Positions 21,423 through 56,156 of a stretch of 64,000 nt of DNA are shown here, piece by piece. The notes under the pieces are model-generated. The model saw nothing but the letters and a program-made list of their open reading frames with translations, did no database searches and was not told where the DNA came from. Positions within the stretch are counted from its first letter, which is position 1. Each line of letters starts with the position of its first letter. Made by a program: the position numbers and the translations under genes. The stretch is from an uncultured Candidatus Saccharibacteria bacterium (lineage in GTDB: Bacteria; Patescibacteriota; Minisyncoccia; Phycocordibacterales; UBA5272), in contig CAZNZQ010000001.1 in assembly GCA_964577675.1 (NCBI GenBank), forward strand, positions 5,875 through 69,874, read 5' to 3'.

Positions 21423-21564
21423 TGTGTGATAGGCCTTATAAAGTGTGGTAGCAAAAATCCCACCACGTGGTGAGGTCTTGCGACCTCCATACCCGTTTCC
21501 AGGTACGGCCTATCACAGCAAAATCCACATGATGGGGTTTTTACTGTGATAGGACATTGTTCGC
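21423..21564. promoter_or_regulatory. palindrome-rich divergent control region (operator-like TGTGATAGG repeats)
   Basis: GTGTGATAGGCC at 21423, the inverse GGCCTATCACAG at 21509 and CTGTGATAGG at 21553; the last two form a 10-bp-stem inverted repeat around a 25-nt spacer. A perfect 12-bp palindrome CACCACGTGGTG sits at 21458, with GAGGTCttgcGACCTC next to it. Confidence 0.45.
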
Positions 21565-21710
21565 CATGCCGCTGATTACTCAAATGGTTTAGGCTACTTG
21601 TATTGATTTGTAAGAACATTATACCTCGTTTTTGAGGTCTTTGGTACTATAGCTTACTAATAAAATTTTGTGTAGAGAAATTATTTTATAATTAGTTTGT
21701 ATTTTTTACA

Positions 21711-34857: not shown

Positions 34858-35988
34858 TTATTTAAAGTAATTTTTATTTTTTATCTCTTCTGGTAAAAAG
34901 CTTTCGTCGTCGTACATCTCATACCCTTTTCCGTATCCATTTGCTTTCATAAGCTTCGTAGGAGCATTCCGTAGCTTCATTGGTATAGGCAAATTGCCTA
35001 ATTTTTTAGCATCCTGGAGAGCTTCCTGGTAAGCATCATATGCGCTTCTGTCTTTCTTTGCTGCTGAAAGATATGCCACCCCGTGAGCTAAGTTGATACC
35101 ACACTCAGGTAACCCAACAGTTTCTACAGCTTTAAATACTTCATTGGCTATAATGAGGGCCCCCTTATCAGCGAGACCTATGTCTTCTGATGCGAATATT
35201 ACCATTCGGCGAGCTATAAACTTCGGGTCTTCGCCAGCATCAATCATGCGCGCTAGGTAGTACATAGCAGCGTCTGCCTGAGATGCGCGCATACTTTTTA
35301 TAAACGCACTGATTGTGTTGTAGTGCTCCTCTCCTTTCTTATCATAACGGAGATGCTTGGATTGAATAGTATCTTTTATGGTCTCAGTGGTGATGTCACC
35401 ATAAAGGTCTCGTGTTGAGGAAATAACGCCAAGTATCTGCCTAGCGTCACCGCCACCAAGTGCACACAACATCTCTCTAGCTTCTTGGTCTATAGAGATA
35501 TTAGTACGATCAATGATGGTATTGATTTCGTCTTTTGTTAATTCGTTAAGAACAAAGACTCGACATCTGGAAAGGAGTGCAGAGATAACCTCAAAGCTTG
35601 GGTTCTCTGTCGTTGCCCCAATGAGAATAAGCTTTCCGTTTTCAACATACGGAAGGAGAAAGTCCTGCTGCGCTTTATTAAAACGATGTATCTCGTCTAG
35701 GAAGAGAACCCGTGGACCAAAGAGGTCTCCTCCTGAGTCTACGATATGGCGAATATCATCTTTGCCAGCTGAGACAGCAGAAAGCTCATGATAATCAGCA
35801 TTGACTGCCTTAGCATAAATACGTGCAAGACTTGTCTTCCCTGAGCCTGGAGGTCCCCAGAGAATAAATGAGAAGATATGTTTCTTTTCTATAGCAACAC
35901 GAAGAGGTTTACCTGGACCGACCAGGTGAGTCTGACCAATATAGTCATCAAGAGATGTTGGACGAAGAATGGAGGCGAGAGGTTCCAT
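34858..35988 (-). CDS. rarA: replication-associated recombination protein A (AAA+ ATPase RarA/MgsA)
   Basis: LWGPPGSGKTSLARI, LFLDEIHRFNKAQQD and a conserved C-terminal MgsA domain. Confidence 0.85.
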   Translation of the reverse strand: MEPLASILRPTSLDDYIGQTHLVGPGKPLRVAIEKKHIFSFILWGPPGSGKTSLARIYAKAVNADYHELSAVSAGKDDIRHIVDSGGDLFGPRVLFLDEIHRFNKAQQDFLLPYVENGKLILIGATTENPSFEVISALLSRCRVFVLNELTKDEINTIIDRTNISIDQEAREMLCALGGGDARQILGVISSTRDLYGDITTETIKDTIQSKHLRYDKKGEEHYNTISAFIKSMRASQADAAMYYLARMIDAGEDPKFIARRMVIFASEDIGLADKGALIIANEVFKAVETVGLPECGINLAHGVAYLSAAKKDRSAYDAYQEALQDAKKLGNLPIPMKLRNAPTKLMKANGYGKGYEMYDDESFLPEEIKNKNYFK

Positions 35989-35993
35989 GGGGA

Positions 35994-36054
35994 GTAGCGT
36001 GTAGCGTGTAGCGTGTAGCGTGTAGCGTGTAGCGTGTAGCGTGTAGCGTGTAGG
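35994..36054. repeat. heptanucleotide microsatellite (GTAGCGT)x8.7
   Basis: Eight perfect copies from 35994 to 36049 plus a partial copy. It begins 6 nt upstream of the rarA start codon on the transcribed strand and replaces any SD sequence. Confidence 0.9.
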
Positions 36055-36234
36055 AGATAGTTTACGCTTTTGGCTGGAAGACGTAAATAGAACGGAAATG
36101 CTAAGAATCGGTCACAAGAGCACTCGCTTCGCTCAAGAAGCTATTGCTTGTTCCTAGAACCGAACTTGCTAACTCGCCTATTCGACTCTCGACATAAAGT
36201 CACTCAAGTGACTTTTTCTTTGGATCACTGCGTG

Positions 36235-36490
36235 AGCCAAGAGCGGGAATCGAACCCGCGACCTCTTCCTTCGTTTACACCCCATCTTCATTCTTATACA
36301 TAGGGACTAGACTGTATCTTTATCCACTAAGGATACCCTTGTCAGTCGTTCGGGCGAATACTCGCCACGGTCTTAGCTTATTGTCAGCCGTTAACCGTTA
36401 TTCGGGATTCACAATACAGTTACCTGTATTGTGGGCAGGAATCTTTTACGACCCACCATGGAAGTGCTCTACCAACTGAGCTATCTTGGC
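36235..36490 (-). tRNA. tRNA-Thr (anticodon GGU) interrupted by a 183-nt intron between positions 36 and 37
   Basis: Exon 1 is GCCAAGATAGCTCAGTTGGTAGAGCACTTCCATGGT and exon 2 is AAGGAAGAGGTCGCGGGTTCGATTCCCGCTCTTGGCT. Joined, they give a perfect 73-nt cloverleaf with a 7-bp acceptor stem, D-arm GCTC/GAGC, anticodon stem CTTCC/GGAAG, loop AUGGUAA and T-arm GCGGG-TTCGATT-CCCGC. Confidence 0.7.
36272..36454 (-). ncRNA. putative group I self-splicing intron in the tRNA-Thr anticodon loop
   Basis: The 5' exon ends in U and the intron ends in G. The intron contains AAGAUACAGUCUAGUCC, resembling the group I J8/7-P7 (S) element, and GACUG upstream as a P7 partner. It has a P8-like hairpin UAUCC-uuagu-GGAUA and a 10-bp hairpin capped by a GUAA tetraloop. 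Confidence 0.5.
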
Positions 36491-36978
36491 TTTTTAGAAA
36501 CAATCTAATAAGCTTACCTTATTTTCTGCAGTTTTTCAATTTCATTAATGAGCACATCCCTCATTTTTTTATTATTATAATAAACTGTCAAAACTCCATG
36601 TTCAATCTTCCTTTTATACGAACCAGATCCTCGAGAAGGCGTGACAACGGTCTTCATGAACTGACTACTGGAAACTTTTAGTTACCGTTTCCAAAAACTC
36701 AATACATCCTCGACCTCGGTGGTATTAAAAACTTGAATACCGAATCTCATGTCTTTTTTATCCACTTCAAAAAAAGTTTCCAAAAACAAGACGAAAGTGG
36801 TGACTAACTTTGGTTCCGTATTGCCTAGCCGAACTTAATACTTATTGGCTTTTGTGCCTTCTCCCCAATACAGGCCAAGGCCAAGGCCAAAAAGAATAGC
36901 TTCTTCATTAGAACTTGGCCCCCCTAAACAGAAATGGGTCTCCGCCAGGGTTATTTTTTAAGTAAACCCTGTAACGAG

Positions 36979-37191: not shown

Positions 37192-37285
37192 GTACGAGAT
37201 AGTAATTCGTAATTAGTAACTAGTTTACTTGTATGTTCTTCAAAACCTTGAATAATTTGCATTTCCACTAATTACCAATTACTAA

Positions 37286-37978
37286 TTACCGAGCCTTCTT
37301 CCCTATCGTATTTTCCTTCTTCATTCTGTATTCGTCGATTAGTTTATGATTACCAGAGAGAAGCACTTTTGGTACGCGATACTTCTTACCTCCGGTTTCA
37401 TATATCTCAGGCCGTGCATATATCTCATGTGACGCTACTCGCTTCTCTTCAAGAGAAAGTTCATCATGCAGCACCCCTTTTACTTGTCTAGAGATTGCGT
37501 CGATACACACCATAGCAGGAAGCTCACCTCCGGTTAAAACATATTCGCCAATACTCCATTCTTTTGCCCTCAAAATTTTTTTTACCCTTGAGTCAACTCC
37601 TTCATACCGACCACAGACAAAAATAACATCGGTGTAACTCTTCGAAGTCTTCTGCGCAAGAGTATTCGTGAATTTCTCCCCTCCTGCGTTAAAAATAACA
37701 ACAAGCGCCTTAGACACCTTTCTCTTGGCGATAGTTTTTTGTATTTTTGTAACACAGCTAACGATTGGGTCTACCCACATTACCATTCCAGGACCGCCAC
37801 CGTAGGGCTTGCCATCAACCCTCCTATGCTTATCGGTTGTATACTCGCGAAGTGCGTACGTCTTTACCTCTATCAACTTGTTCTCTATGGCCCGAGAAAT
37901 AATAGACTCAGCGAAGTAGCTGACGAACATATCTGGGAAAATGGTAACTATGTGAAACCTAAGAGGTTGCTGTTTCAT
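37286..37978 (-). CDS. trmD: tRNA (guanine37-N1)-methyltransferase
   Basis: RFHIVTIFPDMF...YGGGPGMVM and the SPOUT knot region. Confidence 0.85.
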   Translation of the reverse strand: MKQQPLRFHIVTIFPDMFVSYFAESIISRAIENKLIEVKTYALREYTTDKHRRVDGKPYGGGPGMVMWVDPIVSCVTKIQKTIAKRKVSKALVVIFNAGGEKFTNTLAQKTSKSYTDVIFVCGRYEGVDSRVKKILRAKEWSIGEYVLTGGELPAMVCIDAISRQVKGVLHDELSLEEKRVASHEIYARPEIYETGGKKYRVPKVLLSGNHKLIDEYRMKKENTIGKKAR

Positions 37979-50384: not shown

Positions 50385-50434
50385 ACTAGTTATTCATTAT
50401 TAGTTATTCGTTCTACTACACTAATTACGAATTA

Positions 50435-51829
<1,395 letters not shown>

Positions 51830-51885
51830 TTATTAGTAATTAGTTGGTGGTTAATAGTTAATGGTTGATAGTTTTGCTCGGTGGT

Positions 51886-55720: not shown

Positions 55721-55787
55721 AGTAATTAGTAGCTAGCAACCAGCAACCAGGGCAACCCCTGATTGCTATTTACTAATTGCTTTCTAC

Positions 55788-56006: not shown

Positions 56007-56156
56007 AAAATTAGTTGTTAGTTATTAGTTGTTAGTTATTAGTTGAATGCAAAACACATTCAAAATTCTAACTGCAACATTTCAATAAAAATCTGCCCTA
56101 CCTAGGCTTTAGCTTGTAGTATAACAGAAATTATCCTCTCAAGCCAGTTAGTTCTG

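Follow-up and report, generated by a model that had tools for sequence, protein, structure and literature searches.

A perfect heptanucleotide array at the 5' end of rarA in a Patescibacteria genome, at a site whose length varies among relatives

In non-typeable Haemophilus influenzae, a 7-bp repeat, (ATCTTTC)n, is found upstream of hmw1A and hmw2A, and more repeats result in less transcript and less protein (PMC8262952). AGAT repeats are located in the 5'UTR of uspA2 in Moraxella catarrhalis, where copy number differs by strain and sets expression (Attia and Hansen 2006, as cited in PMC4679880). Direct repeats of TAACTGA are positioned just before start codons in marine Beggiatoaceae, some Cyanobacteria and Bacteroidetes, and an RNA binding platform was proposed for the Beggiatoaceae repeats (MacGregor 2015, PMC4679880). 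The LSSR class comprises repeats with units of 5-11 nt; heptanucleotides are its commonest and predominant class in prokaryotes and are mostly intergenic, a predominance attributed to the length of DNA that polymerase holds during slippage (Mrazek 2007, as cited in PMC4679880).

Here we describe a perfect heptanucleotide array between the promoter and the start codon of rarA in the genome of an uncultivated, ultra-small bacterium of the Patescibacteria, within a 64-kb stretch of DNA that was analysed as a whole and is called the window below. Judging from the sequences of this locus and its relatives, we put a probability of about 60% on the reading that the array is a hypermutable long SSR produced by slippage of a local 7-mer at the 5' end of rarA, and that its copy number likely grades RarA.

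Table 1. Positions of the rarA array and of other features in the window
Feature	Position	Strand	Basis or remark
rarA (mgsA) coding sequence, 376 aa	34858..35988, ATG at 35988	-	ORF, Pfam, 8000 homologues
UCCCC spacer, array to start codon	35989..35993 (read 35993-35989)	-	all pyrimidine, without SD
Heptanucleotide array	35994..36053	-	coding strand CTAC(ACGCTAC)8; + strand (GTAGCGT)8.6; perfect; TRF, sequence and chance test
Predicted TSS, T36052/A36051	36051..36052	-	first array bases, 7-8 nt after the -10 box
-10 box TAAACT	36059..36064	-	TA[ACG]ACT in 12/12 related loci, 17 nt after TTTACG
-35 block TTCTA-TTTACG	36082..36092; -35 box TTTACG 36087-36082	-	conserved block
Hairpin AAAGTCACTTGAGTGACTTT	36196..36215	-	just after the tRNA; + strand palindromic in hairpin scan; - form read
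tRNA-Thr(GGU)	36235..36490	-	exon 1 36490-36455, intron 183 nt 36454-36272, exon 2 36271-36235; read by hand
Hexanucleotide (AGGCCA)x3.2	36872-36890		perfect, non-coding, downstream of the DUF167 gene
Facing heptad runs, trmD-DUF167 gap	37200-37290		(AGTAATT-like) x3.6 and (AATTACC-like) x3
atpE leader heptads	56011-56045	-	degenerate, AT-rich; UAACUAA/CAACUAA x5
atpD leader heptads	51825-51873	-	degenerate, AT-rich; AACUAUU-like x7
atpC leader heptads	50387-50443	-	degenerate, AT-rich
atpF leader heptads	55721-55760	-	degenerate, AT-rich
LOOT RNA (RF03000)	21472-21595	-	83.5 bits, full length

A single perfect period-7 array was reported by TRF, with 8.6 copies of GTAGCGT, 100% matches and a score of 120, and the same array is read in the sequence. 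This bears out the initial annotation, which had called a heptanucleotide SSR in the 5' region of rarA. The start it gave for the repeat was correct, and the end, 36054 with 8.7 copies, was not; likewise the 6-nt spacer that it read as 'UCC' is UCCCC, 5 nt long and followed directly by the ATG. At the spacer position relatives carry ACCCCT, GCCTCT or AC7-8. The unit dimer, GTAGCGTGTAGCGT, occurs seven times in register within the array and is matched only once elsewhere in the whole 64 kb, with two mismatches, at 37432. Eight dimer matches were reached in 0 of 100 dinucleotide shuffles, and the shuffles together with the TRF score place the array, as a tract longer than chance, in the LSSR class.

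The unit appears to be particular to this gene. The initial annotation had allowed that the repeat might also stand upstream of unrelated genes; this was looked for, and no other ACGCTAC array precedes a gene in the 64-kb window. The 3-copy (21-nt) pattern of the unit had no match in the 181 loci searched, and a search of 2.9 M viral contigs returned one unrelated match, on a contig with 3.6 copies. As this sole viral match is unrelated, a generic or viral origin of the unit was rejected. Rfam reported no family at or near the array.

The gene downstream of the array encodes RarA/MgsA, a replication-associated AAA+ ATPase, as judged by Pfam (MgsA_C 1.9e-48, AAA_assoc_2, AAA and RuvB_N). The N-terminus, MEPLAS, is conserved from residue 1 among 8000 homologues, the closest of which come from metagenome-assembled Patescibacteria of the Parcubacteria/Paceibacteria group; exact-protein look-ups for the RarA of the window gave no match. 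We also considered whether the array encodes an N-terminal extension and rejected this, as the unit lacks TG and there is no in-frame ATG, GTG or TTG between the preceding stop codon and the rarA ATG.

A sigma-70-type promoter, TTCTA-TTTACG-17 nt-TAAACT, precedes the array and is kept in 12 related species or strains. The -35 block is identical at 11 of 11 bases in nine tabulated loci and present in three more, although rarA itself is only 72-80% identical at the DNA level among the eight species compared, and the promoter is kept whether the upstream gene encodes TauD, Fic or tRNA-Thr. On this sequence conservation TTCTA-TTTACG-17-TA[ACG]ACT is the rarA promoter. Since rarA has its own promoter, conserved whatever gene lies upstream, the spacing to the tRNA, to which the initial annotation had given weight, is irrelevant. 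From the spacing to the -10 box, transcription would start at about A36051, in keeping with leaderless relatives whose ATG lies 6-8 nt after the same box. The array directly follows the promoter, beginning 5-7 nt past the -10 box, and the predicted start site falls on its first bases; thus the array plus UCCCC would make up essentially the whole rarA 5'UTR, about 63 nt. A perfect short tandem repeat is thereby placed between the -10 box and the ATG, as expected of an SSR-mediated contingency locus, and the earlier claim that a change in copy number alters 5'UTR length stands.

The array does lie between a tRNA-Thr(GGU) and rarA, as the initial annotation had stated, and this tRNA gene is split by an intron between positions 36 and 37. 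Its fold keeps all four tRNA arms (z -4.63). The gene was not called by ARAGORN or by Rfam (RF00005), and Rfam made no RF00028 group I call for the intron; by eye, the helix order P1-P9 looks like that of a group I intron. Divergent group I introns at position 36/37 of Patescibacteria tRNA-Thr have been described (PMC13011429), and the intron in the window matches these and is thus already known. The hairpin AAAGTCACTTGAGTGACTTT is terminator-like and would separate the tRNA from the rarA promoter. A 1.1-kb contig from SRR12712865, 100% identical to the window across the neighbouring DUF167 gene, was also found; it stops in exon 1 of the tRNA.

The absence of a Shine-Dalgarno (SD) sequence before rarA is real. 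It is not special to rarA, as the initial annotation had implied, but the rule, since GGAG, GAGG or AGGA occurs at -18 to -4 in only 2 of 63 long ORFs in the window (6 in a control stretch further upstream). A TAnnnT-type -10 hexamer is found 5-10 nt before the start codon of 22 of the 63 genes. Together these counts suggest that the genome is essentially free of SD sequences, with many apparently leaderless genes. Thus there is no ribosome-binding region for the array to replace, contrary to the earlier claim, since the genome is nearly SD-free and array-free rarA orthologs are leaderless. Genes internal to operons in this genome also do without an SD, and good translation from an unstructured leader that lacks one is therefore conceivable, which tells against a loss of RarA as the leader grows.

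The orthologous region was recovered from 12 related loci (Table 2), as the initial annotation had proposed in calling for the same SSR in related genomes. The same site proved to be variable in length, and the units differ between species.

Table 2. Sequence between the rarA -10 box and the start codon
Locus	After the -10 box	Gap to ATG (nt)
L178	AGTGTC	6
L179	GGTACCT	7
L001	ACTCTAT	7
L008	ATATACCT	8
L183/L184	GCCTTCT-AATGTCT-GCCTCT	20
L185	ATTCTCC-ACTAGCC-ACCCCT	20
L168/L173	ATCCTCT-ATTAGTT-AACTGCT-A(C)8 or A(C)7	30/29
L002	ATTCTCT-(ACTAGCC)5-ACCCCT	48
window	ATCTCCT-AC(ACGCTAC)8-TCCCC	70
L005/L088	ACCTTCT-(AATGTCT)13-GCCTCT	104

Across the relatives and the window the site holds 0, 1, 5, 8.6 or 13 copies. 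L183 and L005, which at 96.4-98.9% nucleotide identity over 3.4 kb belong to one species, carry 1 and 13 copies of AATGTCT; the same difference separates L183/L184 from L005/L088, all of which are relatives and not the organism of the window. L185 and L002, which are 87% identical, differ by 1 versus 5 copies of ACTAGCC. The nearest relative of the window, L008 (80% nucleotide, 91% amino acid identity), and the nearest tabulated relative of L005 outside its own species, L178 (79%), both lack an array and are leaderless. In L008, L001, L178 and L179 only 6-8 nt separate the -10 box from the ATG, so that rarA is leaderless there; the gap in the window is that of a leadered gene. From the within-species difference, the L185/L002 pair and the leaderless nearest relatives, we conclude on sequence grounds that the rarA site is hypervariable both between and within species, with different units amplified in each lineage. 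With another 7-base unit present in 0, 1, 5 or 13 copies at this place in relatives, the repeat is real and fast-changing.

Another kind of length variation in the rarA leader was seen in L168-L177, where the ATG is preceded by a poly-C tract of 8 C in most samples and of 7 C in L173 and L176. In L001 (872-2068, P0002) the gene caller had extended rarA to a GTG 22 codons upstream, giving 398 aa; judged by the position of the conserved promoter, translation really begins at a leaderless ATG at 938.

We propose that the array arose when a local 7-mer, located in the few bases from -10 box to start codon, was expanded by slipped-strand mispairing. The ancestral or alternative state is either a leaderless mRNA, in which the gap measures 6-8 nt, or a leader of 20 nt with the unit in single copy, and separate lineages expanded separate units (ACGCTAC, ACTAGCC and AATGTCT). 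The single-copy alleles hold period-7 microhomology, TCT-AATG-TCT in L183/L184 and CCAC-TAG-CCAC in L185, the substrate for such slippage. Based on these alleles, each array is an expansion of a 7-mer already present in the 20-nt leader.

The period itself needs no explanation particular to rarA. A survey of 1.2 Mb (167 loci plus the window) gave 18 distinct near-perfect tandem repeats with periods from 4 to 15, and 16 of them have period 7, including arrays in Acidobacteria loci that encode close RarA homologues, so the heptanucleotide is the prevailing period here as it is among prokaryotic LSSRs. Given this and the known heptanucleotide predominance in prokaryotes, we conclude that period 7 reflects a mutational bias.

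A perfect array is also seen at a second gene. Upstream of ftsE, at least 18 perfect copies of (CCAGTAA) run to the contig end (L002 5119-5245 and L003 2653-2682), the first of them in L002 lying 6 nt downstream of a TATACT -10 box; the ftsE orthologs of the window (33347), L004 and L168 are leaderless. All four perfect arrays of the clade, three at rarA and one at ftsE, thus begin 4-7 nt after a -10 box, a pattern that was noticed post hoc.

Other repeats were observed in the window and in the relatives. The leaders of atpE, atpD, atpC and atpF consist of degenerate AT-rich heptads, with an excess of ACTA at lags 7, 14 and 21 on the - strand and none on the + strand, and their units are one mismatch from the Beggiatoaceae TAACTGA. 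The trmD-DUF167 gap of the window contains facing heptad runs, and an inverted pair of this sort also occurs in the prfB-ftsE gap of L004 and L168; such pairs may form terminator-like or insulator-like hairpins. In the intergenic regions of L017 (5144-5266) and L113 (2167-2324 and 3930-3998), and immediately upstream of rarA in L054 and L029, there are several different heptad families, often as inverted pairs; the RarA of these loci is about 70% identical to that of the window. L017, L054 and L029 have Acidobacteria or Pyrinomonadaceae titles and L113 is an untitled metagenome contig, in which (TGATAAC)4, a cyclic permutation of TAACTGA, ends 2 nt before the rarA ATG. Within the trmD coding region, (AAGAAGC)x4 lies in a variable linker (L004 564-592, L005 636-664), where a slip of the 7-nt unit would shift the frame; the copy number is equal in L004 and L005, which are taken as the same strain or data. 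The window additionally contains a short hexanucleotide repeat and a LOOT RNA (Table 1).

How might copy number affect RarA? As UG is absent from the unit, AUG, GUG and UUG are all missing from the leader, which is also free of stop codons in every frame. The leader RNA is predicted to be unstructured (MFE -6.3 kcal/mol, z +0.87). The initial annotation had suggested predicting 5'UTR structure at different copy numbers; when this was run, the modelled accessibility of the start region stayed at 0.63-0.68 for 0-20 units, and a structure-based effect of copy number was dismissed. As the leader is unstructured and free of start and stop codons and accessibility is constant, copy number could act only through leader length. 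Each unit gained or lost would place the rarA AUG 7 nt further from or nearer to the 5' end of the mRNA. In an SD-less, leaderless-favouring lineage this distance should grade RarA translation, most likely lowering it as it grows, and the repeat would serve as a heritable, reversible rheostat, as for the 7-bp repeats of hmw1A and the AGAT repeats of uspA2. By analogy with these systems, we infer a graded and probably negative effect on RarA synthesis.

It is important to realize that rarA is not a typical contingency gene. The idea of a contingency locus, raised in the initial annotation, is supported in relatives by the variability of the site and is not supported by the type of gene, since RarA is neither a surface or host-interaction protein nor part of a restriction-modification system. 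The array thus meets only part of the definition of a contingency locus, and it is not obvious how switching a housekeeping gene such as rarA would bring a selective benefit.

A bolder proposal, which we consider doubtful, is that Patescibacteria use the gain and loss of heptads at the transcription start as a reversible switch, by which the housekeeping genes rarA and ftsE would alternate between leaderless, efficiently translated mRNAs and poorly translated ones with a long leader or capped by short uORFs. The species of L183 and L005 would represent its clearest form. Each AATGTCT unit carries an ATG (L005 2401-2494 versus L183 826-845). With one unit, as in L183, this ATG follows the -10 box by 8 nt and shares the reading frame of rarA (ATG TCT GCC TCT ATG); with 13 units, as in L005, the first ATG opens a 4-codon ORF, MSNV-stop, and the ORFs of the units overlap. 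RarA functions at stalled forks and in template switching; such a switch, if it operates, could therefore influence the stability of the genome and of repeats, and would constitute a contingency locus for genome maintenance.

Several other roles for the units were considered and set aside. Internal promoters could arise from -10-like hexamers; TAATGT was found in L005 only, and none in the window. A UAG-N4 periodicity, as in HutP/TRAP-like sites, is present on the + strand, which is antisense to rarA and carries no gene. A C-rich, G-poor Rho rut site would fit ACGCUAC and ACUAGCC and does not fit AAUGUCU, and was given low weight.

The most serious alternative to a graded effect on RarA is that the array is a neutral by-product of frequent period-7 slippage in a permissive stretch, with no regulatory role, and we regard this as possible, though clearly the less probable reading. 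Translation in these genomes needs no SD, so the stretch from -10 box to ATG would tolerate insertions, and the predicted structure and start accessibility do not depend on copy number. The dominance of period 7 among the tandem repeats of 1.2 Mb of Patescibacteria and Acidobacteria loci, the occurrence of such arrays after stop codons and as inverted pairs, the different unit in each species and the housekeeping role of rarA are all in line with neutrality. Against it, the four perfect arrays sit 4-7 nt after the -10 box of genes that are leaderless in sister taxa, an association that was seen post hoc, and in a lineage with a preference for leaderless mRNAs, a shift of the AUG by 13-97 nt away from the 5' end would probably not be neutral. 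A mycobacterial study has reportedly established that such a shift is not neutral in a leaderless-favouring lineage.

Far less probable is an RNA binding platform, in which the heptads would bind the ribosome or a protein, for instance S1 or a cold-shock protein, and so act as an SD-independent enhancer or repressor site for translation. Like the TAACTGA repeats, the array is in forward orientation and ends a few nucleotides before a start codon with no SD (PMC4679880), and the leader is predicted to be single-stranded, G-poor and pyrimidine-rich. AT-rich TAACTAA-like heptads also precede atpE, atpD and atpC in the window, where ACTA on the - strand is counted 9, 8 and 5 times at lags 7, 14 and 21 and 0-3 times at most other lags. 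ACGCUAC, ACUAGCC, AAUGUCU and CCAGUAA, however, have only composition in common, and ACGCTAC precedes no other gene in the window, nor does its 3-copy pattern recur in 181 loci. CUA is present in three of the four perfect units; a periodic CUA core common to the units was discarded, as (CCAGUAA)n at ftsE lacks it and the coincidence was noticed post hoc. Since the units have no common motif and sister taxa manage with no unit or one, a sequence-specific platform is unlikely for the rarA array, while it is possible for the atp leaders. Least probable of all, to the point of being nearly negligible, is that an assembler produced the copy number or the array itself, an option that the initial annotation had left standing. 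Arrays at this site do break short-read assemblies: three Logan contigs (L003, L006 and L007) begin within the array, and a gap of 100 N stands in its place in L004. That gap might be taken for a longer allele; its flanks are 100% identical to L005, and we treat the two as the same strain or data with the array unresolved. However, the array of the window is 60 nt, below ordinary read length, and independently assembled relatives carry arrays at the exact position with clean unique flanks, L005 and L088 both having 13 copies, which makes an artefact unlikely.

Together the sequences provide direct evidence that uncultivated, genome-reduced Patescibacteria carry hypervariable repeat loci that would rewrite the mRNA 5' ends of core genes. 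In this lineage, which makes no use of SD sites, rarA orthologs vary from leaderless to a leader length of about 100 nt, and alleles with 0, 1, 5, 8.6 and 13 units form a natural allelic series that could be used to test start-site choice in SD-less, leaderless-rich bacteria. There is also a practical side, as such arrays break assemblies at contig ends and N gaps and the array-free rarA of L001 had a mis-called start. Genome pipelines for these phyla should expect both.

Compared with the described systems, the rarA array resembles hmw1A and hmw2A in that perfect heptanucleotide repeats of variable copy number lie between promoter and start codon; the position is of the hmw1A type, and the effect on expression is one that we extend to rarA by analogy. 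In contrast, the hmw repeats have a promoter on either side, belong to the gene of a surface adhesin in a pathogen adapted to its host and keep one unit in all strains, whereas rarA encodes a housekeeping AAA+ ATPase, has a unit that differs between species and, unlike hmw, would have a leaderless or short-leader mRNA turned into a long-leader one. Similarly, uspA2 has its SSR inside a transcribed 5'UTR, as is predicted for rarA; it differs, in the account given in PMC4679880, in being a tetranucleotide before a surface protein gene, with best expression at about 18 copies.

The TAACTGA repeats are alike in location, as forward heptamers that end a few nucleotides before the start (5 nt at rarA), where an SD is missing, in SD-poor genomes. 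They differ in that one unit recurs at about 170 loci per genome with 2-6 copies each (PMC4679880), whereas the rarA unit is species-specific and, in 64 kb of the genome and with the 3-copy pattern in 181 loci, was found at one gene only. As the unit, ACGCTAC, is not TAACTGA and does not recur before many genes, the rarA array is not a member of the TAACTGA family, to which the TAACTAA-like atp leaders of the window are closer. With the LSSR class the array shares a heptanucleotide unit and an origin thought to lie in polymerase slippage in a preferred 7-nt register. The heptanucleotide STRR repeats of cyanobacteria are a comparable genome-wide repeat class; both LSSR and STRR differ from the rarA array in being genome-wide statistical classes with no defined position relative to promoters. 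We know of no description of LSSR- or STRR-type repeats for Patescibacteria, and a literature search for them in this phylum found nothing.

Overall, the array is of a known kind, a long heptanucleotide SSR in a 5'UTR, which would resemble hmw1A/hmw2A and uspA2 in its action and the TAACTGA repeats in its location. New, as far as literature searches show, are the phylum, a housekeeping gene as target, units that differ from species to species at a single orthologous site, and the predicted conversion of a leaderless mRNA into a long-leader one.
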